A stretch of 64,000 nt of DNA from Candidatus Omnitrophota bacterium. GTDB taxonomy: Bacteria; Omnitrophota; Gorgyraeia; 2-01-FULL-45-10. Shown piece by piece: positions 22,344 to 42,500 of the stretch. A program made the position numbers and the translations under genes. The first letter of the stretch is position 1; the number at the start of each line of letters is the position of its first letter. A model generated the notes under the pieces. The model ran no database searches and was not told the origin of the DNA. It saw only the letters and a list, made by a program, of their open reading frames with translations. The stretch is taken from contig JAGVGJ010000002.1 in NCBI GenBank assembly GCA_020057115.1, positions 857 through 64,856 on the forward strand, read 5' to 3'.

Positions 22344-22346
22344 CTC

Positions 22347-24920: not shown

Positions 24921-24927
24921 GACGGTG

Positions 24928-24970: not shown

Positions 24971-24995
24971 ATAGTAATAAAAAAAGGGGCGTGAT

Positions 24996-25757: not shown

Positions 25758-25769
25758 CATGAAAGGAGA

Positions 25770-27014: not shown

Positions 27015-27031
27015 TATAAGGAGAATGATGC

Positions 27032-27373: not shown

Positions 27374-27418
27374 TAATTAGTGGTTACCAAAAGACTACGC
27401 ATTTTACTTGTATATCAA

Positions 27419-27492
27419 ACACAGCGTAGTGTAGTGAAAAGAACAGAGGCGTTCAATTTGGTTTTATGACTAAATTGGGCGCCTCTTTTTTT
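27419..27492 (+). promoter_or_regulatory. ANTAR-type dual hexaloop hairpin element overlapping an intrinsic terminator (leader of amt-2).
   Basis: Hairpin 1 is ACAC-AGCGTA-GTGT and hairpin 2 is GAAC-AGAGGC-GTTC; both loops have A at position 1 and G at position 4. The terminator is AGAGGCG...CGCCTC followed by T7, and its 5' arm overlaps hairpin 2. Confidence 0.55.
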
Positions 27493-27544
27493 GCTCAATT
27501 TTTACTCAATTGAATACGCAGTTGAATAAAAAGAAAGGGATAAT

Positions 27545-28780
27545 ATGATCAATTCCGGAGATACTGCCTGGATCTTAGTATCGACCGCTCTTGTCATGCT
27601 GATGACGATACCCGGTTTAGCGCTATTTTACGGAGGCTTGGTCCGCAGGAAGAATGTCCTTGCCACCATGATGCAGTCATTCTTCGTATTGTGCCTGATA
27701 AGCATTCAGTGGGTACTTTTCGGCTATACGCTTTCATTCGGTCCGGACAAGGGACATATAATAGGTAACCTTGCATGGCTCGGCTTAAAAGGGGTAAGTA
27801 TCATCCCCAACGCCGATTACGCGCCCACGATACCGCACATCCTGTTCATGGCCTATCAGATGATGTTCGCGGTGATCACTCCCGGGCTCATAACAGGCGC
27901 GTTCGCTGAGAGGATGAAATTCTCAAGCTATGTGGCCTTTACCTTATTATGGGCAACACTCGTCTATAACCCCGTATGCCACTGGGTCTGGGGGACCGGA
28001 GGATGGCTCAAAACTCACGGAGTGCTCGATTTTGCAGGAGGGATAGTCGTCCACGTCACTTCGGGATTCTCGGCCCTTGCTTGCGCGCTCATCATGGGGA
28101 AGAGGCGCGGTTATGGCCGCGAGCCTATGCCGCCGCATAACCTGCCCCTTACAATAATAGGCGCAGGCCTCTTGTGGTTCGGATGGTTCGGATTTAATGC
28201 GGGCAGCGCTCTTGCGGCAAATGGCATTGCCGCAACAACATTTGTGGTAACCAATACTGCGGCTGCGGCTGCCGGGCTCACCTGGATGCTTATCGAGTGG
28301 AAAATAACGGGAAAACCCACCATACTGGGCGGGGCTACGGGGGCGGTCGCGGGACTTGCCACAATAACCCCGGCTTCAGGATTTGTCTCGCCGCTCTCCG
28401 CCATTTTAATAGGCATAGCCGCTTCCTCGATATGCTATACAGCCGTGGCTATTATCAAGCTAAAGTTCGCTTATGACGATTCATTGGATGCTTTCGGCGT
28501 CCACGGGATCGGAGGCGCGGTAGGCACGTTATCGGTAGGCCTCTTCGCGCAGAAACTTATCAACCCTTCAGGGAACGACGGGTTATTCTTCGGCAATGCT
28601 TCGCTATTCATCACGCAGGCGCTCGGAGTAATTGCGGTCATAGCTTATTCGGTAGGCCTCACGCTCATCATTTTGAAAGTCCTCGATGCGACTATAGGCT
28701 TAAGGGTGACGGATGAGGAGGAGGTTGTAGGTTTAGATATAACGCAGCATGAGGAGTCGGCGTATACTTTATTGGATTAA
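27545..28780 (+). CDS. amt: Ammonium transporter (Amt family), copy 2.
   Basis: Paralogue of copy 1 with a conserved core. 411 aa. Confidence 0.9.
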   Translation: MINSGDTAWILVSTALVMLMTIPGLALFYGGLVRRKNVLATMMQSFFVLCLISIQWVLFGYTLSFGPDKGHIIGNLAWLGLKGVSIIPNADYAPTIPHILFMAYQMMFAVITPGLITGAFAERMKFSSYVAFTLLWATLVYNPVCHWVWGTGGWLKTHGVLDFAGGIVVHVTSGFSALACALIMGKRRGYGREPMPPHNLPLTIIGAGLLWFGWFGFNAGSALAANGIAATTFVVTNTAAAAAGLTWMLIEWKITGKPTILGGATGAVAGLATITPASGFVSPLSAILIGIAASSICYTAVAIIKLKFAYDDSLDAFGVHGIGGAVGTLSVGLFAQKLINPSGNDGLFFGNASLFITQALGVIAVIAYSVGLTLIILKVLDATIGLRVTDEEEVVGLDITQHEESAYTLLD

Positions 28781-28799
28781 TATATAAGGAGGATCGAAT

Positions 28800-29141
28800 A
28801 TGAAACTCGTGACCGCAATTATACAACCCCACAAGCTCGAAGACGTATTACAGGAATTGGAAAAAGCAGAGATACATCTAAAGACCGTCTCGAATGCCCT
28901 CGGATGCGGAAGGCAGAAAGGCCGCACAGAGGTATATCGCGGCAGGAAAGAGACTGGGAACCTGCTAAAAAAGATACGCCTTGAGATCGCAGTAAATGAC
29001 CAGTTCGTGCAGCAAACCATCGACGCCATCGTGAAAGGGGCCAGAACAGGCAATATCGGCGATGGGAAGATATTCGTCGTAGCGCTTGCTGAATGCGTAA
29101 GGATACGAACAGGCGAAAAAGGAGGCCAGGCGATAGGTTAG
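28800..29141 (+). CDS. glnK: Nitrogen regulatory protein P-II, copy 2.
   Basis: 113 aa, same motifs as copy 1. Confidence 0.9.
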   Translation: MKLVTAIIQPHKLEDVLQELEKAEIHLKTVSNALGCGRQKGRTEVYRGRKETGNLLKKIRLEIAVNDQFVQQTIDAIVKGARTGNIGDGKIFVVALAECVRIRTGEKGGQAIG

Positions 29142-29217
29142 TAGAACCTTTGGCTTGTTACCAAAAATATGTATTTTTTACTTGTAATATCAGATGAAAA
29201 GTTGTATAGTATTTCTA

Positions 29218-29312
29218 GCACATTGCAGTGCGAAGTAAGGCGTAGACGACCAAATAGAACATTGACGTTCACTAATTATCTCGAAATGCCGAGATAATGT
29301 GAACGTTTTTTT
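29218..29312 (+). promoter_or_regulatory. ANTAR-type dual hexaloop hairpins plus an intrinsic terminator in the glnN leader.
   Basis: Hairpin 1 is GCAC-ATTGCA-GTGC and hairpin 2 is GAAC-ATTGAC-GTTC. The terminator is ACGTTCACTAATTATCTCG / CGAGATAATGTGAACGT followed by T7. Confidence 0.5.
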
Positions 29313-29340
29313 ATTTTATGGTATAATACGGGAGGTTTAA

Positions 29341-31593
29341 ATGAGCATAAGACAAGAGACATTGAGCAGGATCAATGGGATCGACATTGGAGGTGGCAAG
29401 ATGGGTGTGAGGCAGGAGACATTGAACAAGATAAAAGGCGTAGAGCTCAAGAAGATCGACATGCCTAAGAAGGTCTCTTCATATTTCGGCGAGAACACTT
29501 TCAGCATAACTGCCATGCAGAAGTACCTGTCAAAGAATACCTTTGACGCTTTTAAGAAATGGATGTCGGAAGGCGTTACGATATCCAAGGACCAGGCCGA
29601 TGAGATAGCCAATGCCATGAAAGACTGGGCTATGTCAAAAGGCGCCACATACTACACCCACTGGTTCCAACCTATGACAGGCCTCACAGCTGAAAAACAC
29701 GACAGCTTCATATCTATCACAGGGCCGGGAAAGGTAATAGAGAAGTTCTCCGGTTCAAAACTGATACAGGGTGAGCCTGATGCAAGCTCATTCCCATCCG
29801 GTGGCATACGCGCTACATTTGAAGCGCGCGGCTATACCGCATGGGACCCGTCAAGCCCGGCATTCATAATCGAATCACAGCTCGGGAAGACCCTTTGCAT
29901 ACCGACAATATTCATCTCCTATCACGGAGAGGCTCTTGATAAGAAATTGCCGCTCCTGCGTTCGGATGAGGCGCTTTCAAAGGCGGCCGTAAATCTCCTA
30001 AAGCTCTTCGGGCATAAGGATGTAAAGAAGGCCTTCTCCACATGCGGTCCGGAACAGGAATATTTCCTGATCGACAAGAATTACTACAACTTAAGGCAAG
30101 ACCTGGTCATGACAGGCCGCACGCTAGTCGGAGCCGCTTCTCCCAAGGGACAGCAGCTTGAAGACCAGTATTTTGGGACGATCAAGGAACGCGTAGTAAA
30201 CTATATGTTCGAGGTCGCGGAAGAGGCATATAAGCTGGGCATACCTGTAATGACAAGGCATAATGAGGTCGCTCCGCATCAATATGAGTTCGCTCCGATC
30301 TTCGAAGAATCCAATATAGCAGCAGACCATAACCAGCTCTTGATGGAGATAATGAAGAAGGTGGCTCTAAGACATAACATGGTCTGTCTCCTCCACGAGA
30401 AACCGTTCGCCGGCATTAACGGCAGCGGCAAGCATGTGAACTGGTCGTTGGGGGATGATAAGGGCAACAACCTCCTCAATCCCGGAGACACCCCTGAAGA
30501 CAGCCTTCAGTTCCTTGCCGTGCTCGCGGCAGTATTGAGAGCCGTATACCTGCATTCGGATCTTCTGCGCGCAAGCGTTGCCATGGCGGGAAATGAGCAC
30601 CGTCTCGGCGCCAATGAGGCCCCTCCGGCCATCATAAGCGTATTCCTGGGAGCGCAGCTTACAAAGGTCCTGGACGTGATCGAAAAGGGGGCAAAGTCCA
30701 GCGTATCGAAGAAAGATATCATCGATCTCGGGATCGCCAGGCTGCCAAGGTTCAATAAGGATGCGACCGACAGGAACAGGACTTCGCCATTCGCATTTAC
30801 AGGCAATAAGTTTGAGTTCAGGGCTGTCGGTTCAAGCCAGAACATATCTACGCCGATCACGATCGTTAACACGATCATCGCTGATTCGTTGGACTATGTT
30901 GCCGATAAGATCAAGAAGGCATCTAGCGGCAAGGATTTCAACACAGCGGCTCTGCAAGTAATAGCCCAGATAATCAAGGAGACTAAGGATATCCGCTTCG
31001 AAGGCAATAATTATGCCGAAGAGTGGGTGAAAGAGGCCAAGAAGAGAGGGCTGCCGAATATAGCCTCGACATACGAATCGCTAGAGGCTCTCACTAAAGA
31101 GAAGAACATAGCATTATTCGAAAAATACAAAGTCTTCTCAAAAGAGGAGCTCGTAGCCCGCTACCACATATGGATACACACCTATGACCTGATCCTAGAG
31201 ATAGAAGCCAATACGCTAGTCGAGATGGTCAATGCGAGCATCGTCCCGGCAGGTTATGAATACGAAAAACTCCTGGCCACCAATCTGGGCAGGCTGGCAG
31301 AACTAAAGAAGGTTGCCGGCATGAAGCTCGACACAGCGGTATTAAAGGACAAGGTCGAGCACTTAAAAGACGTTTCATCGAAGATATATTACGTAAGACG
31401 TAATACGGGCGAGATGGTAAAGCTCCTTGAAAAGGCTCACACATTGTCGGCTGAGAAGCGCGCCGAGCTGTATTTCGAGGAGTTAAAGCCGCTTATGGAC
31501 CACATCAGGAAGCACGTGGATCAGCTCGAATGCGTCGTTTCAGACGAGCATTGGGATCTGCCGAAGTACAGAGAGATGTTGTTCATTAAATAG
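29341..31593 (+). CDS. glnN: Glutamine synthetase type III (GlnN); the first 20 codons appear tandemly duplicated.
   Basis: About 730-aa GSIII architecture. MSIRQETLSRINGIDIGGGK is followed by MGVRQETLNKIKGVELKK. GGGAGG RBS before 29341. Confidence 0.8.
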   Translation: MSIRQETLSRINGIDIGGGKMGVRQETLNKIKGVELKKIDMPKKVSSYFGENTFSITAMQKYLSKNTFDAFKKWMSEGVTISKDQADEIANAMKDWAMSKGATYYTHWFQPMTGLTAEKHDSFISITGPGKVIEKFSGSKLIQGEPDASSFPSGGIRATFEARGYTAWDPSSPAFIIESQLGKTLCIPTIFISYHGEALDKKLPLLRSDEALSKAAVNLLKLFGHKDVKKAFSTCGPEQEYFLIDKNYYNLRQDLVMTGRTLVGAASPKGQQLEDQYFGTIKERVVNYMFEVAEEAYKLGIPVMTRHNEVAPHQYEFAPIFEESNIAADHNQLLMEIMKKVALRHNMVCLLHEKPFAGINGSGKHVNWSLGDDKGNNLLNPGDTPEDSLQFLAVLAAVLRAVYLHSDLLRASVAMAGNEHRLGANEAPPAIISVFLGAQLTKVLDVIEKGAKSSVSKKDIIDLGIARLPRFNKDATDRNRTSPFAFTGNKFEFRAVGSSQNISTPITIVNTIIADSLDYVADKIKKASSGKDFNTAALQVIAQIIKETKDIRFEGNNYAEEWVKEAKKRGLPNIASTYESLEALTKEKNIALFEKYKVFSKEELVARYHIWIHTYDLILEIEANTLVEMVNASIVPAGYEYEKLLATNLGRLAELKKVAGMKLDTAVLKDKVEHLKDVSSKIYYVRRNTGEMVKLLEKAHTLSAEKRAELYFEELKPLMDHIRKHVDQLECVVSDEHWDLPKYREMLFIK

Positions 31594-31639: not shown

Positions 31640-31730
31640 AAGCACAGGGTCGTGCTTAGATAGAGACAAAAGAACAGAGGCGTTCAAAAAGGTCGAATCG
31701 TACCGGCCTGTTTGAACGCCTCATTTTTAT
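31640..31730 (+). promoter_or_regulatory. ANTAR-type dual hexaloop hairpins plus an intrinsic terminator in the leader of the GATase-gltBD operon.
   Basis: Hairpin 1 is AGCAC-AGGGTC-GTGCT. A 15-nt linker follows. Hairpin 2 is GAAC-AGAGGC-GTTC. The terminator is GAGGCGTTCAAA...TTTGAACGCCTC followed by a U-tract. Confidence 0.55.
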
Positions 31731-32441
31731 ATGAAAAAAATACTGATAATAAAACATGTGGACATAGAGGGCCCGGGGACGATCGAAGAGTTCCTTGTCG
31801 ATTCGGGCTGGAATGTGTCGCAAATTAACCTCGGCTCAGGCGAGATGCTGCCGGCATCGCCGGAAGGGATGGATGCGGTCATATGTATGGGCGGCCCGAT
31901 GAACGCCTACGAGGAAGAGAAATATCCGTTCCTTAAGAATGAGGATGCATTCATTAAGCAGGTAATAGCTTTCAGGATCCCTTTCCTCGGCCTATGCCTG
32001 GGCGCCCAATTGCTCGCAAAGGCTGCGGGCGCAAAAGTGATGAAGGCGCCCGCTAAAGAGATCGGCTGGTACCAGGTAAGCCTTACAAAGGATGGAAAAA
32101 AAGACAGGCTCTTTAGGAGCGCTCCTTCTAACTTTATGGTATTCCAATGGCATGAAGACACTTTCGAGCTGCCCGAGAATGGCGTATTGCTGGCGAGATC
32201 CGACCGGTGCGAGAACCAGGCATTTCGCATCGGCAAGAATGCGTACGGCCTGCAATTCCATATCGAAGTAACACCGCCTATGATAGAAAGCTGGCTGACC
32301 GAAGGCAATATACAGAAGAATGACTCCAGGGCCATGCTAGATGAAGCATATTTAAGGAAAGAATCATATAGCAGCCAGGCTAATTCAATATACATGGATT
32401 TCGCTGATATAATAAAAAGCTCGGAAATTAGAAGAGCATAA
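31731..32441 (+). CDS. Class I glutamine amidotransferase domain protein.
   Basis: GLCLGAQLL nucleophile Cys motif. His/Glu in the C-terminal part. Confidence 0.6.
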   Translation: MKKILIIKHVDIEGPGTIEEFLVDSGWNVSQINLGSGEMLPASPEGMDAVICMGGPMNAYEEEKYPFLKNEDAFIKQVIAFRIPFLGLCLGAQLLAKAAGAKVMKAPAKEIGWYQVSLTKDGKKDRLFRSAPSNFMVFQWHEDTFELPENGVLLARSDRCENQAFRIGKNAYGLQFHIEVTPPMIESWLTEGNIQKNDSRAMLDEAYLRKESYSSQANSIYMDFADIIKSSEIRRA

Positions 32442-32480
32442 AAAATTTTTAAGTTTTAATGCCTAAGCATTAGGCATGAG

Positions 32481-32870
32481 GTGCTAAAGATGATAACCAT
32501 CTTGATAGATGACAACGAAAACAAGTTGAAAGAGCTGCTGAGCGGATTTTTGCGCAGAGAAGGATATGTCACCCAGCCGGACGAGAATGACCCTAGCATA
32601 ATAAAAGTCGTGCCGAAGGAGATCCACGACGGCAAATTCTCCTTAAAGAACAAGATCGTCGAGCTAGAAAACTCTTTATATTATCAGAAAAAGGGTGTAT
32701 TATATAAATCCATTTTAGAAAATGTCGAGAAGCCCATGATAGAGCATGCTCTTGAGCGCACCGAAGGAAATCAGCTCAAGGCGGCAAAGATGCTGGGCAT
32801 GAACCGGAATACGATACGCGCAAAGATAAAGAAGCTCGGCATAGACTTAACGAGATGGAAGGACCATTAA
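32481..32870 (+). CDS. Small Fis-type HTH (HTH_8) DNA-binding protein resembling an NtrC C-terminus.
   Basis: C-terminal QLKAAKMLGMNRNTIRAKIKKLGI. Stop is 1 nt before the gltB start. Confidence 0.5.
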   Translation: MLKMITILIDDNENKLKELLSGFLRREGYVTQPDENDPSIIKVVPKEIHDGKFSLKNKIVELENSLYYQKKGVLYKSILENVEKPMIEHALERTEGNQLKAAKMLGMNRNTIRAKIKKLGIDLTRWKDH

Positions 32871-32871
32871 A

Positions 32872-35800
32872 ATGACGAATTACCATCTTCCGAAAAAACA
32901 GGGACTTTACGATCCGGCATACGAACATGATGCCTGCGGGGTAGGCTTTGTCTGCAACATAAAAGGCGAGAGGTCAAACGAGATCGTAAAACAGGGACTC
33001 GAGGTATTGAACCGCCTCGCTAACAGGGGCGCTACGGGATCCGACCCTAAAACCGGCGACGGCGCGGGCATCCTCATGCAGATGCCGCATGAGTTCTTCG
33101 CTAAGGCATGTCAGAGCGCTAAGATAGATCTCCCGTCTTCGGGCGATTATGCTACAGGCCTGGTATTCCTGCCAACGGATACAAAAGAACGCGAGTTCTG
33201 TAAAGGCGTATTCAAGGCGGCCGTTGAAAAAGACGGGCAGGCGCTTATCGGCTGGCGCATTGTGCCGGTAGATGATTCGGACATAGGCCAGACCGCCAAA
33301 CAGACAGAACCCGTCATCGAGCAGCCATTTATCAGAAAGGCAGACGGCATAAAAAACTCTCTGGAATTCGAGAGGCGCCTCTACATAATAAGAAAGAAAA
33401 TAGAGAACGCTATACGCTCGTCTGATATTAAGCAGAGATCCTTCTTCTACATAACCAATCTCTCAAGCCGCACATTCTCGTATAAGGGCCTCTTGATGCC
33501 GCACCAGCTGGGCAATTTCTTCCCGGACTTAAAAGAGAGCTCCATCCAAAGCGCTATATCCCTTGTCCATTCACGCTATAGCACCAACACCTTCCCTACA
33601 TGGGACTTATCGCAGCCATTCCGTTTCCTTGCCCATAACGGCGAGATAAACACTCTTCGGGGAAATATCAACTGGATGGCCGCAAGAGAAGGGCTGCTCA
33701 AGAGCAAGCTCTTCGGGAAAGATATCAATAAGATATCTCCTATAATAGTTCCGGGCGGTAGCGACTCTGCGGCTCTAGATAATGTATTTGAGCTTCTGGT
33801 CCTATCCGGCAGGCCCATACATCATGCGATGATGATGCTCATCCCGGCGGCATGGCAGCAGGATAAGCTCATGGACAACAAGCTTAAAGATTTCTATCGC
33901 TACCACGCCTGCCTCACCGAGCCGTGGGATGGACCGGCAGCGATAGCATTTACTGACGGAACAAGGATAGGTGCAGTCCTTGATAGAAATGGCTTAAGAC
34001 CGGCTCGTTATATAGTTACAAAGACCGGTATGGTCGTTATGGCCTCGGAAGCCGGAGTGCTTGATATTGACGCAAAAGATATTGCTATATCAGGCAGGCT
34101 TGAGCCAGGCAAGACATTCTTCATAGACACCGAAGCCGGGCGCATCATAAATGATGCGGAGCTTAAGAAGGAGACGGCTGAAAAACAACCTTACTCGAAA
34201 TGGCTCAAGGATCACCTGAAGAACTTGGATGATCTGCCGGGACATAAAGCTGCTAAAGGGAAGACCGGCGATACGCTCACAGCCTTAAAGGCATTCGGAT
34301 ATACGCGGGAAGACCTGCGGATGATAATCAAGCCGATGGCCGCAAAAGGCCAGGAGCCTATCGGCTCCATGGGCAATGACGCGCCTCATGCTGTCATATC
34401 CAAGAAGCCGCATCTCTTATATACATACTTCAAGCATCTTTTTGCCCAGGTCACCAATCCTGCCATAGACCCGATAAGGGAAGAGCTTGTTATGAGCCTC
34501 GACAGTTATATCGGACCCGAAGAGAACCTGCTTGATGAGACACCGGAACATTGCAATAAACTCAAGGTTTCAAAGCCCATACTTAGCAATGAGGAGCTTG
34601 AAAAGATACGTCATATCAAGGTGAATGGCTTCCGGACCCGCACTATCCCGATATTGTTCAGCGCTTCGGACAGCAAAGACTTCACAAAAACCCTTGATGC
34701 CATATGCAGCCAGACCGTGAAAGCGATCAGGGATGGATACACTTTCGTCATATTGAGCGACCGCGGAGTGAATAAAGCTAAAGCTGCGCTGCCGGCCCTT
34801 TTGGCCACAGGGGCCGTCCACCAATACCTTATCAAGAAAGCCATGCGCACGCAGATAGGCATAATAGTGGAGAGCGCCGAGCCCAGAGAAGTACACCATT
34901 TCGCTCTTCTCTTCGGTTATGGCGCAGATTGCGTAAATCCATATCTTGCTTACGAAGCAGTCGAATACCTGGTAAAGGAAGGCGAGCTTGATATCGACGC
35001 GAAGAACGCTGTGTCTAATTACAAAAAAGCGATCAATAAAGGCATCCTTAAAATACTTTCGAAGATGGGCATCTCTACATTACAGAGCTACCGCGGAGCG
35101 CAGATATTCGAGGCATTGGGTATAGGCGAGAAAGTAATAGCTAAATGTTTTACAGGAACTCCTTCCCGTATAGGCGGCGTAGACTTCGAGGTGCTCGGCA
35201 AGGAATGCCTCATAAGGCATGAAGATGCATATCCGAAAGACGCCGTACGATCTCCGATCCTTCCGCCCGGCGGCATATATCAATGGCGCATGGACGGGGA
35301 TTTTCACCTTTGGAATCCCGACTCGATTGCAGCCCTCCAGGATGCCACAAGATTCAATGACCGGGAAAGATATAAGGAATTTGCAAGGCTGATAAATGAC
35401 CAGTCAGATAATCCGTGCACATTGAGAGGGTTGCTGCGATTTAAGCCGGGAAAGCCTATCACAATAGATGAAGTAGAGCCTTTCGAGGAGATAGTGAAGC
35501 GTTTCGCTACCGGAGCTATGAGCTTCGGTTCGATAAGTAAAGGCGCCCACGAGACGCTCGCCATCGCTATGAACCGCCTGAAAGCAAAGTCCAATACCGG
35601 AGAGGGCGGGGAAGATCCTGCAAGGTTCCAGTCTCTCCCGAACGGTGACTCTGCAAGGAGCGCTATCAAGCAAGTCGCATCCGGCAGATTCGGCGTGACC
35701 ACAAATTATCTTATAAACGCGGACGAGCTCCAAATAAAGATAGCGCAAGGCGCAAAACCCGGAGAGGGCGGGCAGCTGCCCGGGCACAAGGTAAGCGCCA

Positions 35801-37401
35801 TCATCGCGAAGACACGCTACACCACTCCGAGAGTTACCCTGATATCGCCTCCGCCTCATCATGATATCTACTCCATTGAGGACCTGGCACAGCTTATATT
35901 TGACTTAAAAAATGTCAACCCTCGCGCCAGGATAAGCGTGAAGCTCGTATCCGAAATAGGCGTTGGCACAGTAGCGGCCGGCGTCGCCAAGGGCCATGCA
36001 GACATGATCCTGATATCGGGAGGGGATGGCGGGACAGGCGCATCGCCTTTAAGCTCCATAAAACACGCCGGGCTTCCGTGGGAGCTCGGATTATCCGAAG
36101 CCCACCAGACCCTTGTCCTGAATGACTTGAGAAGCCGGGTGCGACTTCAGACCGACGGCCAGATGCGGACCGGCCGGGATGTCGCTATAGCCGCTATGTT
36201 GGGAGCCGAAGAGTTCGGATTCTGCACGGCAGCCCTGATAGTATTGGGATGCGTGATGCTGAGGCATTGCCATCTCAACAACTGTTCTGTCGGAGTCGCG
36301 ACCCAGGACGAGATACTCGAGAAACATTTCAGGGGCAAGCCGGAATATGTGATCAATTATTTCCGGTTCGTCATAGAAGAATTGCGCGAGATAATGGCAT
36401 CCCTCGGGATACGCAAGCTTGATGAGATGGTTGGAAGGTCGGACCTGTTAGAGACCAACTCGGACATCCTTCCATGGAAAGCAAAAGGAATAGATTTTTC
36501 CCGCATACTATACAAGCCTGAAGTCCCGTCTTCGGTGGGGATCTATTGCACAAAAGCTCAGGACCATGGTATCGACAAAACATTGGACCGGAAACTTATA
36601 GAGCTGTCTAAGGATGCCCTGGAAAGGGCTGAAGCCGTAAAAATATCCTTACCGATAAGTAATGTCAACAGGACCGCCGGCGCCACACTATCCGGAGAGG
36701 TCTGCAGGATATGGGGAGAGAATGGCCTTGCCGAAGATACTATACACTGCAAGTTTAAAGGCGTGGCAGGGCAGAGTTTCGGTGCATTTCTTGCCAAGGG
36801 CGTCACGTTCGAGCTCGAAGGCATGGCGAACGATTATGTCGGTAAAGGCATATCATCCGGCAAGATCATCATCTATCCCGATAAGAATGCCGGATATAAG
36901 CCGGAAGAGAATATAATAATCGGCAATACCACTTTCTACGGCGCCATAAAGGGAGAGGCCTACATACGTGGGATGGCCGGGGAGAGGTTCTGCATAAGAA
37001 ACTCCGGGCTTCTGGCTGTAGTCGAAGGCGTAGGCGACCATGGATGCGAATACATGACCGGCGGGCGCGTCATAGTGCTGGGCAAGACCGGCAGGAACTT
37101 CGGCGCCGGCATGTCAGGAGGGATCGCGTATATCTATGACGAATCCGGAGACTTCAAATACAAATGCAACACCGAGATGGTAGAGCTTGAGAAAGTCGGA
37201 AGAGATGACCTCCTGATTATTAATGACCTTCTTATTAATCATTACAGGTACACTCAAAGCCCTATCGCGAAGAAAATAATCGACGATTTCAAGTCAAACA
37301 TTAAGAAATTCATAAAGGTCATGCCGACAGAATACAAGCGCATTTTAGACACAAAGAAGATGGACGAGAAGTTGGACCTAACAGAGGTATCAGATGGGTG
37401 A
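32872..37401 (+). CDS. gltB: Glutamate synthase large subunit.
   Basis: 1509 aa. N-terminal Ntn amidotransferase Cys (CGVGFV), FMN and 3Fe-4S domains, C-terminal GXGXG domain. Confidence 0.9.
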   Translation: MTNYHLPKKQGLYDPAYEHDACGVGFVCNIKGERSNEIVKQGLEVLNRLANRGATGSDPKTGDGAGILMQMPHEFFAKACQSAKIDLPSSGDYATGLVFLPTDTKEREFCKGVFKAAVEKDGQALIGWRIVPVDDSDIGQTAKQTEPVIEQPFIRKADGIKNSLEFERRLYIIRKKIENAIRSSDIKQRSFFYITNLSSRTFSYKGLLMPHQLGNFFPDLKESSIQSAISLVHSRYSTNTFPTWDLSQPFRFLAHNGEINTLRGNINWMAAREGLLKSKLFGKDINKISPIIVPGGSDSAALDNVFELLVLSGRPIHHAMMMLIPAAWQQDKLMDNKLKDFYRYHACLTEPWDGPAAIAFTDGTRIGAVLDRNGLRPARYIVTKTGMVVMASEAGVLDIDAKDIAISGRLEPGKTFFIDTEAGRIINDAELKKETAEKQPYSKWLKDHLKNLDDLPGHKAAKGKTGDTLTALKAFGYTREDLRMIIKPMAAKGQEPIGSMGNDAPHAVISKKPHLLYTYFKHLFAQVTNPAIDPIREELVMSLDSYIGPEENLLDETPEHCNKLKVSKPILSNEELEKIRHIKVNGFRTRTIPILFSASDSKDFTKTLDAICSQTVKAIRDGYTFVILSDRGVNKAKAALPALLATGAVHQYLIKKAMRTQIGIIVESAEPREVHHFALLFGYGADCVNPYLAYEAVEYLVKEGELDIDAKNAVSNYKKAINKGILKILSKMGISTLQSYRGAQIFEALGIGEKVIAKCFTGTPSRIGGVDFEVLGKECLIRHEDAYPKDAVRSPILPPGGIYQWRMDGDFHLWNPDSIAALQDATRFNDRERYKEFARLINDQSDNPCTLRGLLRFKPGKPITIDEVEPFEEIVKRFATGAMSFGSISKGAHETLAIAMNRLKAKSNTGEGGEDPARFQSLPNGDSARSAIKQVASGRFGVTTNYLINADELQIKIAQGAKPGEGGQLPGHKVSAIIAKTRYTTPRVTLISPPPHHDIYSIEDLAQLIFDLKNVNPRARISVKLVSEIGVGTVAAGVAKGHADMILISGGDGGTGASPLSSIKHAGLPWELGLSEAHQTLVLNDLRSRVRLQTDGQMRTGRDVAIAAMLGAEEFGFCTAALIVLGCVMLRHCHLNNCSVGVATQDEILEKHFRGKPEYVINYFRFVIEELREIMASLGIRKLDEMVGRSDLLETNSDILPWKAKGIDFSRILYKPEVPSSVGIYCTKAQDHGIDKTLDRKLIELSKDALERAEAVKISLPISNVNRTAGATLSGEVCRIWGENGLAEDTIHCKFKGVAGQSFGAFLAKGVTFELEGMANDYVGKGISSGKIIIYPDKNAGYKPEENIIIGNTTFYGAIKGEAYIRGMAGERFCIRNSGLLAVVEGVGDHGCEYMTGGRVIVLGKTGRNFGAGMSGGIAYIYDESGDFKYKCNTEMVELEKVGRDDLLIINDLLINHYRYTQSPIAKKIIDDFKSNIKKFIKVMPTEYKRILDTKKMDEKLDLTEVSDG

Positions 37402-38836
37402 TCCTAAAGGTTTCCTGAAACTTAAGAGACTATATTCGCTATACAGGCCTGTATGCGAGCGCGTAAAAGACTATGCGGAAGTCTCCGTATTGCGCACCGA
37501 TAAGCTGACCGAAGAGCAGAGTTCCCGCTGCATGGACTGCGGCACGCCATTCTGCCACTGGGGATGCCCGATCGGGAATGTCATACCTGAATGGAATGAC
37601 CTTGTGTTCCACAAGAAATGGGGTAAAGCCTTAGAGCTTTTGCATGCAACAAACAATCTTCCGGAGATAACGGGAAGGCTATGCCCGGCACTATGCGAAG
37701 CGGCATGCGTCCTGGGTATCAATGACGACCCGGTGACCATCCGGGAAAATGAATTAGGCATAATCGAGCATGCCTTTAAAGCCGGCTTGATAAAACCCAG
37801 GCCGTCCAAGAAGCGGACCGGAAAAAAAATAGCCGTGATAGGTTCCGGCCCGACAGGGCTTGCTGCAGCCGACCAATTGAATAAGGCGGGTCATGAAGTC
37901 ACAGTTTTTGAGAAGGATGATAAGATAGGCGGCATTCTAAGATACGGGATACCGGACTTTAAACTTGAAAAGACTATAATCGACAGGCGCGCCAAACTGT
38001 TAGCGAAAGAGGGCATAAAATTCAAGCCCGGTGTCGAGGCCGGAACTGATATCTTGACCTCAAAACTCAAAAAAGATTTTGATGCTATATGTCTTGCAGG
38101 AGGAAGCCGCGTGCCGCGCGACTTAAAGATAGATGGCAGGGAACTTGACGGCATATATTTTGCAATGGACTTCCTTATACAGGCCAACAGATGCGCCTCT
38201 GGCGAAAAGATAGCGCCCGATAAGATCATAAACGCCAAAGGCAAAAAGGTCGTAGTGATAGGCGGCGGGGATACCGGCGCTGACTGCGTCGGCACAAGCC
38301 ACAGGCAGGGCGCGAGTTGCGTTGTCCAGATAGAGGTCCTGCCGCAGCCTCCGGAGTGCCGCACAAAGGAATACCCATGGCCAAAATACCCGCTCTTGTT
38401 AAAAACATCTTCAAGCCACGAAGAAGGCGGAGAACGCCACTGGGCTGTCCTCACAAAAAAATTCAGCGGGAAAAACGGCCATGTAACGAAGCTTTCATGC
38501 GTCAGGGTGGAGTTCAATAAAGACGATAAGGGCTGCCCGGTGATGCAAGAAGTTCCGAGAAGCGAATTTGCAATAGAGACTGATATGGTTATTCTGGCGG
38601 TCGGATTCCTTCATCCGGAACACAATAAGCTTTTAAAAGACCTGGGAGTGCAATTCGACCATAGGGGTAATGTCAAAACGGATGCATCGTATGCGACTTC
38701 AGCAAAAGGCGTATTCTCAGCAGGCGATATGAGAAGAGGGCAATCGCTCATAGTCTGGGCGATATCAGAAGGAAGACGCGCCGCATATTCCATCGACAAG
38801 TATCTGATGGGAACAACGCGCCTGCCTCCGGGATAA
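37394..38836 (+). CDS. gltD: Glutamate synthase small subunit (NADPH).
   Basis: N-terminal Cys clusters and two Rossmann GxGxxG motifs (GSGPTGLAAA, GGGDTGADC). Confidence 0.9.
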   Translation: MGDPKGFLKLKRLYSLYRPVCERVKDYAEVSVLRTDKLTEEQSSRCMDCGTPFCHWGCPIGNVIPEWNDLVFHKKWGKALELLHATNNLPEITGRLCPALCEAACVLGINDDPVTIRENELGIIEHAFKAGLIKPRPSKKRTGKKIAVIGSGPTGLAAADQLNKAGHEVTVFEKDDKIGGILRYGIPDFKLEKTIIDRRAKLLAKEGIKFKPGVEAGTDILTSKLKKDFDAICLAGGSRVPRDLKIDGRELDGIYFAMDFLIQANRCASGEKIAPDKIINAKGKKVVVIGGGDTGADCVGTSHRQGASCVVQIEVLPQPPECRTKEYPWPKYPLLLKTSSSHEEGGERHWAVLTKKFSGKNGHVTKLSCVRVEFNKDDKGCPVMQEVPRSEFAIETDMVILAVGFLHPEHNKLLKDLGVQFDHRGNVKTDASYATSAKGVFSAGDMRRGQSLIVWAISEGRRAAYSIDKYLMGTTRLPPG

Positions 38837-38843
38837 TGATCTT

Positions 38844-39827
38844 ATGCTAAAGATAGACTGCAAGAAAACTGCCAGCCAGATCGAAAGGTTCATAAGGCAA
38901 GAGGTTCAGTCCGGATTTAAAAAGAAAGGTGCTGTGGTCGGCCTCAGCGGCGGGCTTGACTCATCAGTGACCGCAGCATTATGCGCAAGGGCCATCAGCC
39001 CGAAAAATGTTTTAGGAGTGCTTTTGCCCGAAAGGGAATCTGCGGGCAAGAGCTCAAGCTATGCCATTGCATTGGCCAAAAGATTAGGCATAAGGGCGGA
39101 GAAGAGGGATATCACCGCCGTGCTGGACTCTTTCGGCATTTATAGGGAAAGGGATTCTATAGTAAAAAGATATTTCCGGGATTTTCGTGCGGGGGAGCGG
39201 TTCCGGATAACCATGCCCGGAAGCATCTTGACTAACAGGCAGCTCAATATCCCGTGCCTGGAGATGAAGGATAATTTCGGGCGCCTTCACAAAGATATGC
39301 TATCGGCCGATGATTATCGTTCTATGATAGCGGCTACGAATGTAAAGCATCGCGTCAGGATGTCCGCCCTTTACTATTATGCGGAAAAGAATAATTACCT
39401 TGTGGCCGGAACTACTAATTTAACAGAATTCCTTCTTGGATTTTTTGTAAAATATGGGGATGGCGGAGCGGATATTGATCCTATCAGGCATCTCTATAAG
39501 ACGCAGGTATATCAATTGGCAAGATATTTAAAACTGCCGGATGTGATCATAGGCCGCACCCCTAGCCCTGATACATTCAGTTATCCGGTAAGTGACGAAG
39601 ACTTCTACTTTAGGCTACCTTACGGCAAGCTGGATATGTTATTATATTCTTTCATAAATAAAACGCCTTTAGCAAGGATCAAGAAAAGCGTCAGAGTGAA
39701 CACGGAACAACTGGAGAGGATATTCTTTGACCTCCGATCCAAATACAAGATCGGCAAGCGCTTAAGAAGCGCCCCGATAGGGCTCAAGCTATCCCGCACA
39801 AATATCGAAAGAAAAGGACATATATGA
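38844..39827 (+). CDS. nadE: NH3-dependent NAD+ synthetase-like PP-loop ATPase.
   Basis: SGGLDSS PP-loop and KYGDGGADIDPI motifs. Confidence 0.55.
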   Translation: MLKIDCKKTASQIERFIRQEVQSGFKKKGAVVGLSGGLDSSVTAALCARAISPKNVLGVLLPERESAGKSSSYAIALAKRLGIRAEKRDITAVLDSFGIYRERDSIVKRYFRDFRAGERFRITMPGSILTNRQLNIPCLEMKDNFGRLHKDMLSADDYRSMIAATNVKHRVRMSALYYYAEKNNYLVAGTTNLTEFLLGFFVKYGDGGADIDPIRHLYKTQVYQLARYLKLPDVIIGRTPSPDTFSYPVSDEDFYFRLPYGKLDMLLYSFINKTPLARIKKSVRVNTEQLERIFFDLRSKYKIGKRLRSAPIGLKLSRTNIERKGHI

Positions 39828-42397
39828 TCAGCACAGGAATAAGCGGACTGGATAAAGTCATAACCGGGCTGCAGCTCGGGGACAATGTGGTCTGGCAGAT
39901 AGACTCTATCAGCGACTATACCGAATTCGTGGACCCATTCGTAAAGAAAGCCCTTGAGGAGAACAGGCGGCTTGTCTATATACGTTTCGCCAACCACAAA
40001 CCTCTGTTAAAGAAAGAGAAGGGCATCACAGTCTATGAGCTTAATGCTACCGAAGGGTTTGAATCATTTTCCGCGCAGATAAACAGTATTGCAAAAAAAG
40101 AAGGTGAAGGGGTATTCTACGTATTCGATTGCCTCTCGGACCTTCTCTCTGCATGGTCGAATGACCTCATGATAGGCAACTTCTTTAAGATCACCTGCCC
40201 GTTCCTCTTCGAGCTGAACACAATAGCCTATTTTTCCCTCCTTCGCAACAGGCACTCATTCAAGACTGTCGCGCGTATCCGCGACACTACGCAGCTACTC
40301 ATAGATGTTTATAATTATAATGATAAATGTTATATACATCCTTTAAAAGTCTGGAACCGTTATTCTCCGACGATGTTCCTGCCGCATATCAGGACAAAAG
40401 ATGCATTCGTCCCTATCGCTAACAGCGTAGACACGGCCAAGCTCTTCTCTAACATATTCAAGAAAGGGATAAAGAGCACCGAGAGGAAGCTCGACTACTG
40501 GGACAGGCTCTTCATAGATGCCGAGGAACTGGCAAACCAAAAGGGCACGGCACGCGAAAAGAAGACAAAAATGATAGACAAGCTTTCAAGGATAGTGATA
40601 GCGCGAGACGAGAAGATGCTGGAGCTCGCAAAAGAGAATATAACGCTCGAAGATTTTCTTAATATAAAATCGAGGATGATCGGGACAGGTTTTATAGGAG
40701 GAAAATCTGTCGGCATGCTGATAGCACGCAATATCCTTTCAAAAGAAAAGTCTCTTGAGACGGAAACTCTGTTCGAGACTCACGACTCTTTCTATGTAGG
40801 TTCAGACGTATTCTACACCTACATCGTAGAGAACGGCTGGTGGAAGGCCCGCATGGAGCAGAGGACTAAAGAGGGTTACTTCGAAGTGGCTAAGACCCTC
40901 AAAGATAAGTTATTGACCGGGGTATTCCCAGAAGAGATCAAAGAGCAGTTCATGCAGATGATGGAATATTTCGGGCAATCCCCGATCATAGTCCGCTCAT
41001 CGAGCCTCCTCGAAGACAGCTATGGCAATGCCTTTGCCGGAAAATACGAGAGCGTATTCCTTGCAAACCAGGGGACGCCCGAACAGAGGTACTCGAAATT
41101 CGTGGATGCCATACGCCGGATATACGCTTCAACGATGAATGAGGATGCCCTTGTGTACCGCCTGCAGCGCGGCCTCGACCAGATGGATGAGCAGATGGCG
41201 CTCCTCGTGCAGCGCGTTTCGGGATCCTATCATAAGGATTATTTCTTCCCCGATGTCGCAGGTGTGGGCATATCCTCAAATATCTATGTCTGGAAAAACA
41301 CCCTGGACCCGAAGGCGGGGATGTTGCGCCTGGTCGCAGGACTCGGCACAAGAGCGGTCGACCGGGTTGAAGGGGATTACCCCAGGATCGTGGCCCTCGA
41401 CGATCCGCTCCTTAAGGCTCACGCCGGCATAAAGAGCATCCAGAGATTCTCCCAGCATGAAGTGGATGTTATAAATGTTAGAGAGAATGCATTCCAGACC
41501 ATATCATTAAGAGAGCTCTTGATGGAGAATGTCGACATGAAACTCGACCTCATAGGGACCAAAGACGAGGAAGCGACCGAAAAGCTGCGCGAGATGGATG
41601 TGGATGAAGAGTCCTGGATAATAACATTTGACGAGCTGCTTTCGAAAACGGATTTTTCACAGACCATGCGCAAGATCTTACGGACCCTTGAGTCGGCTTA
41701 CGGATATCCTATCGACATAGAATTTACAGTCAATTTTAAGACGGGCGGTGCATTCCAGATAAACCTCGTCCAGTGCCGTCCAATGCAGACAAGAGGATTG
41801 GGGCGCAGGGTGAGCATGCCTAAGACCGTATCAAAAGACAAGACGATATTCCAGTCGACCGGTAATTTCCTGGGAGGCAACATATCTCAGGCGATCGACA
41901 GGATAATCTATGTAGACCCCAAGGCATACTGCAGCCTGGCCACTCAATCCGAGAGATATGACATAGCCAGACTGGTCGGGATGCTGAACAGGCAGATAGA
42001 GTCCAAGGAAAAGATGTCGGTCATGGTGCTAGGGCCCGGCCGGTGGGGGACAACCACGCCTTCTTTAGGCGTGCCGGTATCCTTCGCGGAGATAAATAAC
42101 ATAACGGTGCTTGGCGAGATCGCGTTCGCCACGGTCAATGCCGCGCCTGAGATATCATTCGGCACGCACTTCTTCCAGGACCTTGTCGAGACAGGCATCT
42201 TCTATATTGCATTGTATCCCGATGACCGGAGCGCATTCACAAACCAGAAGTTCTTCGATTCCATGCCCAAAGGCCTCAAAGAGCTCGTGCCGCAATACAG
42301 CAAGTACGAGGATGTCGTAAAGGTGCTGGACGTCAAAGGAAAAGGCTTAAAGATCGTATCTGATATAGTGTCTCAGAAAGCTATTTGCTATTTCTGA
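39824..42397 (+). CDS. Large multidomain protein: degenerate KaiC/RecA-like N-terminus, a PPDK_N (PEP synthase / pyruvate phosphate dikinase nucleotide-binding) ATP-grasp domain, and a C-terminal domain of unknown function.
   Basis: GISGLDKVITGLQLGD has no Walker A. Then IGGKSVGML, VRSSSLLEDSYGNAFAGKYESV, and LVQCRP at the end of the PPDK_N-type domain. Confidence 0.5.
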   Translation: MISTGISGLDKVITGLQLGDNVVWQIDSISDYTEFVDPFVKKALEENRRLVYIRFANHKPLLKKEKGITVYELNATEGFESFSAQINSIAKKEGEGVFYVFDCLSDLLSAWSNDLMIGNFFKITCPFLFELNTIAYFSLLRNRHSFKTVARIRDTTQLLIDVYNYNDKCYIHPLKVWNRYSPTMFLPHIRTKDAFVPIANSVDTAKLFSNIFKKGIKSTERKLDYWDRLFIDAEELANQKGTAREKKTKMIDKLSRIVIARDEKMLELAKENITLEDFLNIKSRMIGTGFIGGKSVGMLIARNILSKEKSLETETLFETHDSFYVGSDVFYTYIVENGWWKARMEQRTKEGYFEVAKTLKDKLLTGVFPEEIKEQFMQMMEYFGQSPIIVRSSSLLEDSYGNAFAGKYESVFLANQGTPEQRYSKFVDAIRRIYASTMNEDALVYRLQRGLDQMDEQMALLVQRVSGSYHKDYFFPDVAGVGISSNIYVWKNTLDPKAGMLRLVAGLGTRAVDRVEGDYPRIVALDDPLLKAHAGIKSIQRFSQHEVDVINVRENAFQTISLRELLMENVDMKLDLIGTKDEEATEKLREMDVDEESWIITFDELLSKTDFSQTMRKILRTLESAYGYPIDIEFTVNFKTGGAFQINLVQCRPMQTRGLGRRVSMPKTVSKDKTIFQSTGNFLGGNISQAIDRIIYVDPKAYCSLATQSERYDIARLVGMLNRQIESKEKMSVMVLGPGRWGTTTPSLGVPVSFAEINNITVLGEIAFATVNAAPEISFGTHFFQDLVETGIFYIALYPDDRSAFTNQKFFDSMPKGLKELVPQYSKYEDVVKVLDVKGKGLKIVSDIVSQKAICYF

Positions 42398-42419: not shown

Positions 42420-42500
42420 ATGGATATTCTTTTTATAGGGATCATTGCGATTCTGGCAATGATCTCTTTTGCCTTTATAGCGCTATGCGCCAAGCTATGA
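42420..42500 (+). CDS. Tiny hydrophobic ORF (about 26 aa, MDILFIGIIAILAMISFAFIALCAKL) in the kdp leader; coordinates are accurate to +/-1.
   Basis: Single predicted TM helix. Not in the ORF track, which has a length cutoff. Confidence 0.2.
   Translation: MDILFIGIIAILAMISFAFIALCAKL

Follow-up and report, generated by a model that had tools for sequence, protein, structure and literature searches.

An 857-aa protein encoded at the end of a glutamate synthase gene string in a Candidatus Omnitrophota bacterium (39824-42397, + strand) was found to belong to a large, uncharacterised protein family of 898 clusters (50% identity, E<=1e-30). Members stand beside genes of ammonium assimilation in many anaerobic bacteria, so the family is probably a hitherto undescribed component of nitrogen metabolism or of its control; no paper on it was found in the literature. 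The most likely predicted role of the protein is that of a phosphotransferase, driven by ATP, that either regulates the 2-oxoglutarate/glutamate node or serves it. All positions refer to the window, which is the whole stretch of 64,000 nucleotides that was analysed.

Genomic features of the nitrogen cluster

The region 31731-42397 contained six + strand genes in one tightly packed string: a class I glutamine amidotransferase (GATase), a small Fis-type HTH protein, gltB, gltD, an NH3-type NadE and the 857-aa protein, with intergenic spacings of 39 nt, 1 nt, -8 nt, 7 nt and -4 nt for the ORFs as called. ORF coordinates and Pfam/NCBIfam assignments confirmed the gene identities given in the original prediction. 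The string is the tail of a nitrogen cluster of approximately 17 kb, the upstream part of which (21624..31593, + strand) codes for a GAF-ANTAR protein (21624-22343), a first, glutamine-dependent NadE (22500-24188), a GerE-like protein, amt, glnK, amt, glnK and glnN (type III GS), and this upstream gene order recurred in six loci. The string was preceded by an ANTAR-type terminator leader and followed by a terminator-like hairpin with a 12-bp stem (42437..42467, + strand) at the end of the transcription unit, ahead of kdpA.

The ANTAR-type two-hairpin element (31640..31685, + strand), obtained by fold and pattern scan, comprised hairpin 1 at 31640-31657 (AAGCAC-AGGGTC-GTGCTT) and hairpin 2 at 31672-31685 (GAAC-AGAGGC-GTTC), with A at position 1 and G at position 4 of both hexaloops. 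An intrinsic terminator (31677..31730, + strand), made of a 12+6 bp stem at 31677-31722 followed by AUUUUUAU, overlapped hairpin 2 with its 5' arm and abutted the GATase start codon. The leader fold had an MFE of -50 kcal/mol (z = -5.8 against shuffles), and no Rfam family matched the leader. Two more ANTAR-type copies, which share the GAAC/GTTC second stem and have a T-tract downstream, were located at 27419-27454 and 29218-29270, giving three ANTAR-type leaders and one GAF-ANTAR gene in the window. The hexaloops, the terminator overlap and the nearby ANTAR gene that characterise an ANTAR-regulated terminator leader were all present, and RNA binding and antitermination are predicted from them. 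The GAF-ANTAR protein would bind the two hexaloop hairpins and presumably permit read-through from glnN past the terminator, and read-through would lead to expression of the glutaminase-type GATase, the HTH regulator, GltBD, the NH3-type NadE and the 857-aa protein. We regard the region as a putative single ANTAR-gated transcription unit that makes up the 3'-terminal part of an Omnitrophota supercluster for ammonium assimilation.

The stand-alone class I GATase (31731..32441, + strand, 236 aa) matched PF00117 (E 1e-21, 77.9 bits against a cutoff of 22.8) and scored 204 bits on NF005458, under the cutoff of 250; its Cys-His-Glu triad could be read in the translation (Cys in GLCLG, His and Glu in FHIE). 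The small Fis/NtrC-type HTH protein (32490..32870, + strand, 126 aa) carried HTH_8 (PF02954, E 8e-17, 61.2 bits against the Pfam cutoff of 22) at aa 79-119 in 129-aa numbering, while its 70-aa N-terminus had no Pfam match. Its gene most likely starts at the ATG at 32490 (126 aa), not at 32481 (129 aa), which leaves 48 nt between it and the GATase gene; the 126-aa version was identical to a database protein (P0270). The protein had been labelled an orphan, which proved wrong: it belongs to a conserved family of 125-127 aa whose genes immediately precede gltB in Omnitrophota and Planctomycetia (six loci and about 10 metagenome loci). The large and small subunits of glutamate synthase were encoded by gltB (32872..37401, + strand, 1509 aa; NF008730, 1795 bits) and gltD (37394..38836, + strand, 480 aa; TIGR01317, 670 bits). 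The next gene (38844..39827, + strand, 327 aa) coded for a PP-loop enzyme of the NH3-dependent NAD+ synthetase type (NF002048, 363 bits against a cutoff of 313), in which the SGGLDSS PP-loop was present and no CN_hydrolase domain was found; its substrate assignment is predicted. The stop codon of this gene overlapped the start codon of the 857-aa gene (ATGA).

Domain architecture of the 857-aa protein

The sole Pfam match of the 857-aa protein was PPDK_N (PF01326, aa 290-669, E 3e-54), and its AF2 model had a pLDDT of 88.3 and a pTM of 0.85. The original prediction described a two-part fusion of a KaiC-like domain and PPDK_N; both domains were recovered, and a conserved fourth domain had been overlooked. 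The four modules, all on the + strand, were a KaiC/FlaH/RecA-fold domain without Walker A (aa 1-215, 39824..40468), a helical linker taken from the model secondary structure (aa 216-285, 40469..40678), the PPDK_N ATP-grasp domain (aa 286-661, 40679..41806) and a novel C-terminal domain (aa 662-857, 41807..42397). The two motifs quoted earlier were present, VRSSSLLEDSYGNAFAGKYES at aa 390-410 and LVQCRP at aa 648-653.

The N-terminal domain was indeed KaiC/RecA-like and without Walker A, as had been proposed, with the fold recognised at the structure level only. Foldseek matched it to KaiC (7s65_B, E 3.4e-9) and FlaH (4yds, E 6.4e-9) with TM scores of 0.65-0.67 normalised to the target (0.67 for KaiC-CI, 4tlb), and Pfam gave nothing on this domain even at E<=10. 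No GxxxxGK[ST] was found in aa 1-215, where the position after strand 1 reads WQIDSISDY, and the domain is therefore no P-loop ATPase; D102 (Walker-B-like) and a G78-F79-E80 motif were conserved. The ATP-grasp domain showed invariant GGK (292-294), RSSS (391-394), E397, D398, K407, E633 and Q650-C651-R652. Its Foldseek matches were rifampin phosphotransferase and HpeI (E 1e-12 to 5e-10), and PDB sequence matches to PEP synthases were confined to aa ~350-470. As this domain is homologous to PPDK_N enzymes and the nucleotide-site residues are kept, ATP use is likely.

The C-terminal domain (190 aa) contained invariant P738-G739-R740, E765, S778, G780, H782 and E789 and had no Pfam, PDB-sequence or Foldseek match, the best Foldseek hit of its model against the PDB having an E of 0.18. 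The reported absence of a canonical PEP-utilising or phosphohistidine domain was upheld by Pfam, Foldseek, hhalign and HMM searches. The PF00391 swivel domain gave no Pfam match and a negative HMM search on the protein, and hhalign of the C-terminal domain against 120 real PF00391 proteins returned a probability of 0.3%. The PF02896 TIM barrel likewise had no Pfam match, and just 196 residues remain beyond the ATP-grasp domain. An HMM built from the 120 PF00391 proteins detected no partner His gene within +/-10 kb of 172 loci. The protein did not fit the characterised families, in agreement with the original prediction: NCBIfam models of PEP synthase, PPDK, rifampicin phosphotransferase and PigC scored 21-69 bits against cutoffs of 500-1700, and profile searches placed it in no well-characterised family with all domains present.

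Across 119 representatives, including variants without the KaiC-like domain, essentially no variation was seen in the residues of the nucleotide site or in P-G-R, E, S, G, H and E of the C-terminal domain. N-termini were variable across the family, and some variants had extra NTase fusions. The C-terminal domain is a new domain that forms the conserved, putatively catalytic core together with the ATP-grasp domain, and the KaiC-like domain is a replaceable part of the family.

Linkage to ammonium-assimilation genes

Neighbourhood analysis showed that about 95 of the 160 homologous loci, from several phyla, had gdhA, gltBD, GS, amt, glnK or nrpR within 6 kb (47 of the 80 species-level genome loci and about 48 of the 80 metagenome loci). 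By record title, the linked genome loci were assigned to Omnitrophota, Planctomycetota, deltaproteobacterial lineages (Syntrophales, Desulfobacterales, Desulfuromonadales), Bacillota, Actinomycetota, Acidobacteriota (Bryobacterales), Margulisiibacteriota, Spirochaetota and one Methanoregula MAG. The gdhA gene was found within 6 kb in 28 of the 80 species-level genome loci, with a median gap of 196 bp, and three distant variants were also gdhA-linked. Among close relatives, the 857-aa gene took different slots of the cluster (between glnK and glnN, after gltD, before gltB, and after gdhA), which is typical of a functionally linked gene. Other neighbours of the family genes were NrpR, GAF-sigma54 activators and STAS/anti-sigma proteins. 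About 40% of the homologous loci had no nitrogen gene within 6 kb, including a 75%-identical ortholog surrounded by unrelated genes, and four variants were located in unrelated contexts.

The extended operon proposed originally was not conserved as such when neighbourhoods of the 160 homologous loci were compared, NadE and GATase being local additions; taken literally, this is an outcome that the original prediction had named as refuting it. The 327-aa NadE adjoined an 857-aa homolog in none of the 160 loci; the GATase did so in just two distant loci and was not found in the close Omnitrophota clusters. Despite the unconserved operon, the association of the 857-aa family with ammonium-assimilation genes is strongly conserved and functionally meaningful.

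Proposed function and alternative explanations

The reading that we tentatively favour is an ANTAR-gated unit in which the 857-aa protein acts as a phosphotransferase and post-translational regulator of ammonium assimilation. ATP would be bound in the ATP-grasp site and a phosphoryl group transferred, either via the invariant His782 or directly, to a component of the 2-oxoglutarate/glutamate node. In the AF2 model, His782 stands at the start of a helix, a placement shared with other phosphohistidine carriers; the role of His782 is conjecture, since no relation of the C-terminal domain to known phosphohistidine domains could be detected. The preferred acceptor would be a protein (GdhA, GOGAT or PII), which would make the enzyme such a regulator, and the P-loop-less KaiC-like domain may be an exchangeable input or oligomerisation module. 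The variable N-termini, the NTase fusions and the NrpR, GAF-sigma54 and STAS neighbours were counted as signalling-like traits. The consistent position immediately after genes for glutamate-forming enzymes would suit a metabolic role just as well, and for anaerobes short of energy, regulation by ATP-to-AMP chemistry would be costly.

In such a metabolic role, the protein would be a dikinase or phosphotransferase for small molecules in nitrogen metabolism, acting on a GDH/GOGAT-linked metabolite (for example 2-oxoglutarate, glutamate or a pyridine nucleotide), with the KaiC-like domain only building an oligomer. To our knowledge, all characterised PPDK_N enzymes, which include those among the structural matches, use small molecules or glycans (PpsA, PPDK, glucan water dikinase, rifampin phosphotransferase, phenylphosphate synthase/HpeI and PigC), and the gene is most often found directly downstream of the glutamate-forming, NADPH-using gdhA or gltD. 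The translational coupling to the NAD synthetase gene points the same way, but this adjacency is unique to the window. We consider this role somewhat unlikely, as the 2-oxoglutarate/glutamate node has no obvious missing ATP-dependent step, the family gene also occurs with amt-glnK, nrpR and sigma54 activators where neither gdhA nor gltBD is present, and the variable N-terminal modules are closer to signalling proteins than to pathway enzymes.

Less likely still is a non-catalytic ATP/AMP sensor or scaffold that modulates GDH, GOGAT or PII allosterically, with no phosphotransfer, as might be suggested by an N-terminal domain that is already a pseudo-ATPase and by the missing His swivel domain. 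GGK, RSSS, E633, QCR and the C-terminal His, Arg, Glu and Ser were essentially invariant in the 119 divergent representatives, a pattern typical of active enzymes and not of binding modules.

Chance juxtaposition after gltD-nadE of a protein unconnected with nitrogen metabolism would account for the 75%-identical ortholog amid unrelated genes and the loci without nitrogen genes nearby, but is very improbable. By our estimate, a gene present once or twice in a 3-Mb genome would lie nearby by chance in roughly 1% of loci, against the 28 of 80 species observed for gdhA, and the linkage recurs across several phyla, in several arrangements and in distant variants. An ordinary PEP synthase, PPDK or rifamycin phosphotransferase, suggested by database names such as 'phosphoenolpyruvate synthase', by the PPDK_N and PDB sequence matches and by weak NCBIfam matches to PpsA and Rph models, is the least probable identity and was refuted by the domain tests, with scores far under cutoffs (69 against 883, 42 against 999), PF00391 and PF02896 absent, a C-terminal domain unrelated to the swivel domain, likeness confined to the ATP-grasp domain and a nitrogen-assimilation context.

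Comparison with known systems

Compared with PEP synthase, PPDK and rifampin phosphotransferase, the 857-aa protein has a homologous ATP-grasp domain that keeps GGK, RSS, E and Q-x-R, lacks the swivel His domain, the PEP/pyruvate TIM barrel and the rifampicin-binding domain, and adds the novel C-terminal domain, a family-specific Cys in QCR and the N-terminal KaiC-like domain. The rifampin phosphotransferase model NF041857 gave 42 bits against its cutoff of 999, and the structural match to 5hv1 and 5hv3 spanned only ~415 columns, corresponding to the ATP-grasp domain. As in the split dikinases (phenylphosphate synthase PpsB; HpeI, PDB 9goj, which was among the top structural matches), the ATP-grasp domain stands apart from canonical substrate/His domains. 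The partner subunit of PpsB/HpeI carries the canonical His domain, whereas no PF00391-type gene lay within +/-10 kb of the 172 family loci.

The fold of aa 1-215 and its conserved Walker-B-like Asp resemble KaiC/FlaH/RecA-superfamily ATPases; unlike these, the domain has no Walker A and no Pfam KaiC match and is fused to an ATP-grasp domain. The HTH_8 of the 126-aa protein can be aligned to the C-terminal ~50 residues of Fis and NtrC, but this protein lacks AAA+ and receiver domains and has a distinct conserved 70-aa N-terminus and a fixed position directly upstream of gltB.

In EI-Ntr (PtsP), GlnD/GlnE and PknG-GarA, a sensor and a (phospho/nucleotidyl)transfer module control GS, GDH, GOGAT or PII. 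The 857-aa protein has no sequence or fold relationship to these systems except for the PPDK ancestry of EI, and the analogy is one of working alike only. Some of its relatives carry an extra nucleotidyltransferase domain. EI-Ntr consists of the half of a PPDK-like enzyme that binds PEP, whereas the 857-aa protein would be built from the other half.

Organisation of the GOGAT operon

Profile searches concurred with all the gene identities of the original prediction, and the ORF coordinates confirmed its positions for the six genes in 31731-42397. The class I glutamine amidotransferase (GATase, 31731-32441) matched PF00117 (E 1e-21), the small HTH gene product matched HTH_8 (E 8e-17), GltB matched NF008730 (1795 bits), GltD matched TIGR01317 (670 bits), and the NH3-type NadE (38844-39827) matched NF002048 (363 bits against a cutoff of 313), with SGGLDSS as its PP-loop and no CN_hydrolase domain found in the profile search. 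The sole Pfam domain of the 857-aa protein, encoded by the last gene (39824-42397), was PPDK_N (aa 290-669, E 3e-54), and the two peptide motifs quoted for this protein were found in its translation. From the GATase through the 857-aa gene, the intergenic gaps were 39 nt (or 48 nt if the corrected HTH start is used), 1, -8, 7, and -4 nt, and the sole convincing terminator-like hairpin on the + strand was located directly 3' of the 857-aa gene (42437-42467).

The region is the tail of a bigger nitrogen cluster, all on the + strand, which also contained a GAF-ANTAR regulator (21624-22343), a glutamine-dependent NadE with CN_hydrolase and NAD_synthase domains (22500-24188), amt, glnK, amt, and glnK (25770-29141), and the type III glutamine synthetase gene glnN (29341-31593). 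The cluster therefore has two NAD synthetase genes. The glutamine-dependent one adjoins the GAF-ANTAR gene, a pairing kept in three of the numbered comparison loci (L103, L106, and L119), and is again first in the cluster in L089, while the NH3-type one (327 aa) is unique to the window operon. The NH3-type NadE and the GATase are each a local addition here. That a GATase of glutaminase type adjoins an ammonia-dependent amidating enzyme is suggestive, and the stand-alone GATase could be the ammonia source for the 327-aa NadE. A kdpA-kdpB-kdpC-kdpD-like potassium uptake operon (42603-49233) lies directly 3' of the nitrogen cluster, and the L114 locus too has kdpA 3' of gltD. The nitrogen PTS controls Kdp in E. 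coli.

The small HTH gene most likely starts at ATG 32490, with GAGGTG 6 nt upstream, and its 126-aa product was identical to database protein P0270. The description of this protein as an orphan was not borne out, as it belongs to a conserved family (125-127 aa, full-length identity 53-87%) whose gene is directly 5' of gltB in other Omnitrophota (L087-L089), in Planctomycetia (L019, L020, and L029), and in about 10 metagenome loci. It is best read as a putative dedicated regulator of the GOGAT operon. Its 70-aa N-terminus matched no known domain, and a receiver-domain remnant was rejected, Response_reg giving no hit even at E<=10. In the Omnitrophota locus L087 (10385-12022), gltB was split by an inserted transposase gene (IS200-type, Y1_Tnp) immediately 3' of the small HTH gene.

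ANTAR-type elements

In the fold of the 137-nt spacer between glnN and the GATase gene (z = -5.8), a hexaloop hairpin precedes a long terminator, after which comes AUUUUUAU, and the terminator's 5' arm is overlapped by an alternative hairpin (GAAC-AGAGGC-GTTC). The two hexaloops carry the ANTAR target signature, A at position 1 and G at position 4. Folding and a pattern scan gave three such two-hairpin elements, in the spacers 5' of the second amt (27419-27454), glnN (29218-29270), and the GATase gene (31640-31685), all with A1/G4 hexaloops, a common GAAC/GTTC second stem, and, 31-38 nt further on, a T-tract. The earlier remark that an ANTAR leader precedes the operon is therefore well founded. 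Rfam showed no family at gathering score anywhere in the window, these elements included. The location of the three elements in successive spacers suggests serial antitermination checkpoints on one long nitrogen transcript, with the GAF-ANTAR protein (21624-22343) in control. For antitermination by an ANTAR protein, the nitrogen genes of Geobacter (GnfK/GnfR system; PMC2995071) are a precedent, and that paper makes no mention of an 857-aa-type protein.

A G-tract element, GGGNCCAGGGGCCAGGGTCAAGGG(TCCAGGG), which fits the G-quadruplex consensus, was located immediately 3' of the glnN stop codon (31593-31623). A second copy is intergenic near 50.6 kb (50604-50627), with an inverted C-rich copy 23 nt on (50650-50673), and the sequence could represent an intergenic repeat or a motif that is structured as RNA or DNA. 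Taken alone, the operon is an ordinary GS-GOGAT cluster, putatively under ANTAR control, and the interest lies in the 857-aa protein.

Domain architecture of the 857-aa protein

AlphaFold2 modelling, which the original prediction had proposed as a check, gave a confident model from 45 homologs (pLDDT 88.3, pTM 0.85). In Foldseek against the PDB, aa 1-215 resembled KaiC (E 3e-9), FlaH (E 6e-9, TM 0.65 target-normalised), KaiC-CI, and RecA, and the P-loop was missing, so that the KaiC-like domain without Walker A, called from the sequence alone, was correct. Residues 1-285 had no Pfam hit at a threshold as loose as E<=10. The stretch aa ~286-661 resembled the ATP-grasp domain of rifampin phosphotransferase (5hv3, 5hv1, and 5hv6; E 1e-12 to 1e-10) and also HpeI (9goj). 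Both parts of the predicted KaiC-like/PPDK_N fusion are thus present; the two-domain description was incomplete, with aa 662-857 overlooked.

This C-terminal domain, modelled alone, reached pLDDT 89.8, and its Foldseek search against the PDB showed nothing better than E 0.18 or TM 0.38, with no profile match to PDB sequences and no Pfam match. The PpsA alignment (phmmer) reached aa 695, and SFGTHFFQDLVE in the domain by eye resembles GGxTSHAAIVARE. Comparison of the domain by hhalign with an alignment of 120 genuine proteins of PF00391, the phosphohistidine or swivel domain of PEP synthase (PpsA) and PPDK, gave a probability of 0.3%. An HMM of these 120 proteins, a narrow RPH-like subfamily with limited sensitivity to distant swivel domains, gave no match to the 857-aa family or to ORFs in the 2.7 Mb of related loci. 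A diverged swivel domain at aa 662-857 was not supported by the hhalign, Foldseek, and HMM results, and a canonical His-domain partner gene nearby was rejected, none being found in the 2.7 Mb with the RPH-like HMM. As judged by hhalign and this narrow HMM, a canonical His domain is absent in cis and nearby, in agreement with the predicted absence of a phosphohistidine domain. A degenerate Pol-beta nucleotidyltransferase (GPGRWGT...GVPV compared with GS...DxD) was rejected on negative Foldseek and Pfam results, and a defence-system role was rejected as PADLOC gave no hit to the protein.

Family variants and invariant residues

The best database matches were from Candidatus Omnitrophota. The family is large: a word-indexed search scored more than 8000 proteins, and 898 clusters were counted at 50% identity (E<=1e-30). 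The unit of aa ~255-857 (ATP-grasp and C-terminal domain) recurs behind other N-termini, and the KaiC-like domain is an exchangeable module. Variant forms of the unit were ~780, ~1050, and ~1500-1650 aa, and included a Geobacter-type tandem fusion and an added nucleotidyltransferase domain. The fusion in Geobacter sp. OR-1 (L001, 10001-14419; 1472 aa) has a full KaiC-like copy behind a core-only one; its annotation is 'phosphoenolpyruvate synthase', and it is located between an alpha-amylase-family gene and pgi, away from nitrogen genes.

Among 119 divergent representatives, GGK 292-294, RSSS 391-394, E397/D398, K407, E633, and Q650-C651-R652, which make up the nucleotide site familiar from PPDK and PpsA, were essentially invariant. 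Equally, P738-G739-R740, E765, S778, G780, H782, and E789 of the C-terminal domain were essentially invariant, with His782 at a helix N-terminus in the AlphaFold2 model. This residue pattern in both domains indicates a putatively active enzyme, whose active site probably involves the ATP-grasp and C-terminal domains together. A non-catalytic sensor is accordingly improbable, as the residue conservation is of the catalytic type.

Linkage to ammonium assimilation

The exact arrangement of the extended operon was not conserved. When the proposed check of neighbourhood conservation was run on 160 loci, the adjacency of NadE and GATase to homologs of the 857-aa protein was not kept: the 327-aa NadE adjoined a homolog in none of the 160, the GATase in 2 (L025 and L036, both distant), and the neighbours of a 75%-identical ortholog were unrelated genes.

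The link of the 857-aa family to ammonium assimilation is conserved. In 80 genome loci (one per species, with every ORF up to 6 kb from the homolog clustered and the identities confirmed by Pfam), gdhA was the commonest neighbour (28/80, median gap 196 bp), followed by gltD (10), amt (10), GAF-sigma54 activators (8), nrpR (7), glnK (7), gltB (5), glnN (4), and type I GS (3). Of the 80, 47 had one or more of the core assimilation genes within 6 kb. By our own estimate, chance alone would bring gdhA within that distance in roughly 1% of genomes if it has one or two copies per ~3 Mb, and chance adjacency to nitrogen genes is rejected as highly improbable. By record title, the linked genome loci include Omnitrophota, Planctomycetota, Bacillota, Actinomycetota, Acidobacteriota (Bryobacterales), deltaproteobacterial lineages (Syntrophales, Desulfobacterales, and Desulfuromonadales), Margulisiibacteriota, Spirochaetota, and one Methanoregula MAG, and ~48 of 80 metagenome loci had the linkage.

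In close Omnitrophota relatives, the homolog (X) occupied varying slots of one cluster: glnK->X->glnN (L103, L106, L114, and L119), HTH-gltB-gltD->X (L107, L111, L112, and L116; without a detected HTH hit in L118), X->gltB-gltD (L094, L095, L109, and L127), and gdhA->X (L117, L126, and L153). A distant 782-aa variant follows gdhA in L172, and the variants in L001, L085, L091, and L173 were without nitrogen linkage. In two distant variants (L086, 2868-10031; L090, 1780-10055), gdhA is followed by a PPDK_N protein (583 or 973 aa), a PPDK_N protein with a C-terminal nucleotidyltransferase (1064 or 1077 aa), and a convergent Metallophos phosphoesterase gene 3' of the pair; this set could comprise modifying and demodifying enzymes tied to glutamate dehydrogenase.

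Proposed function

Three observations point to a putative ATP-using enzyme acting on the 2-oxoglutarate/glutamate node: the ATP-grasp site is intact, the C-terminal domain has invariant His, Arg, Glu, and Ser residues, and the linkage to glutamate-forming enzymes and nitrogen regulators persists. We tentatively favour a regulatory phosphotransferase directed at proteins, because the modularity is signalling-like, the KaiC-like domain is a pseudo-ATPase, and nrpR, glnK, GAF-sigma54 activators, and STAS/anti-sigma genes are found at the same loci. The principal alternative, a small-molecule dikinase, has the chemistry of all characterised relatives and the placement of the gene downstream of gdhA and gltD on its side, and is considered rather unlikely. 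A canonical PEP synthase or rifampicin phosphotransferase is scarcely credible and was rejected.

The 857-aa protein is a variant inside the PPDK_N dikinase superfamily, from which it differs in lacking two defining domains and having one novel domain. Its architecture and nitrogen link have no record in Pfam, NCBIfam, the PDB, or the literature, full-text searches finding no paper on the family, and the earlier statement that it fits no characterised family holds for the domain and structure databases. In databases, many members of the family carry the name 'phosphoenolpyruvate synthase' or 'PEP/pyruvate-binding domain-containing protein'; the former is incorrect, and metabolic reconstructions of uncultured anaerobes could go astray because of it.

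Few regulatory networks of bacteria have been studied as thoroughly as that of ammonium assimilation. Use of the enterobacterial GlnD/GlnE machinery is not known for most of the anaerobic lineages here (Omnitrophota, Planctomycetota, Syntrophia, and Clostridia), and no cyanobacterial PII kinase is known to have been identified. This large, conserved, and probably enzymatic family, tied to gdhA, gltBD, glnN, and amt-glnK clusters in several phyla, offers a concrete candidate, open to testing, for a regulatory or metabolic step that is missing in ammonium assimilation. It would extend the PEP-synthase/dikinase superfamily by a new architecture and possibly by a phosphocarrier domain of a new kind. 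A more specific and doubtful extension of the regulatory reading is that the family is an unrecognised ATP-dependent protein modifier in the ammonium-assimilation network of anaerobes, in which a dikinase-derived kinase, with a phosphohistidine or catalytic domain of a new type, would toggle GdhA, GOGAT, or PII. The 857-aa family would then take a role equivalent to that of GlnD/GlnE, PknG-GarA, and the cyanobacterial PII kinase elsewhere.
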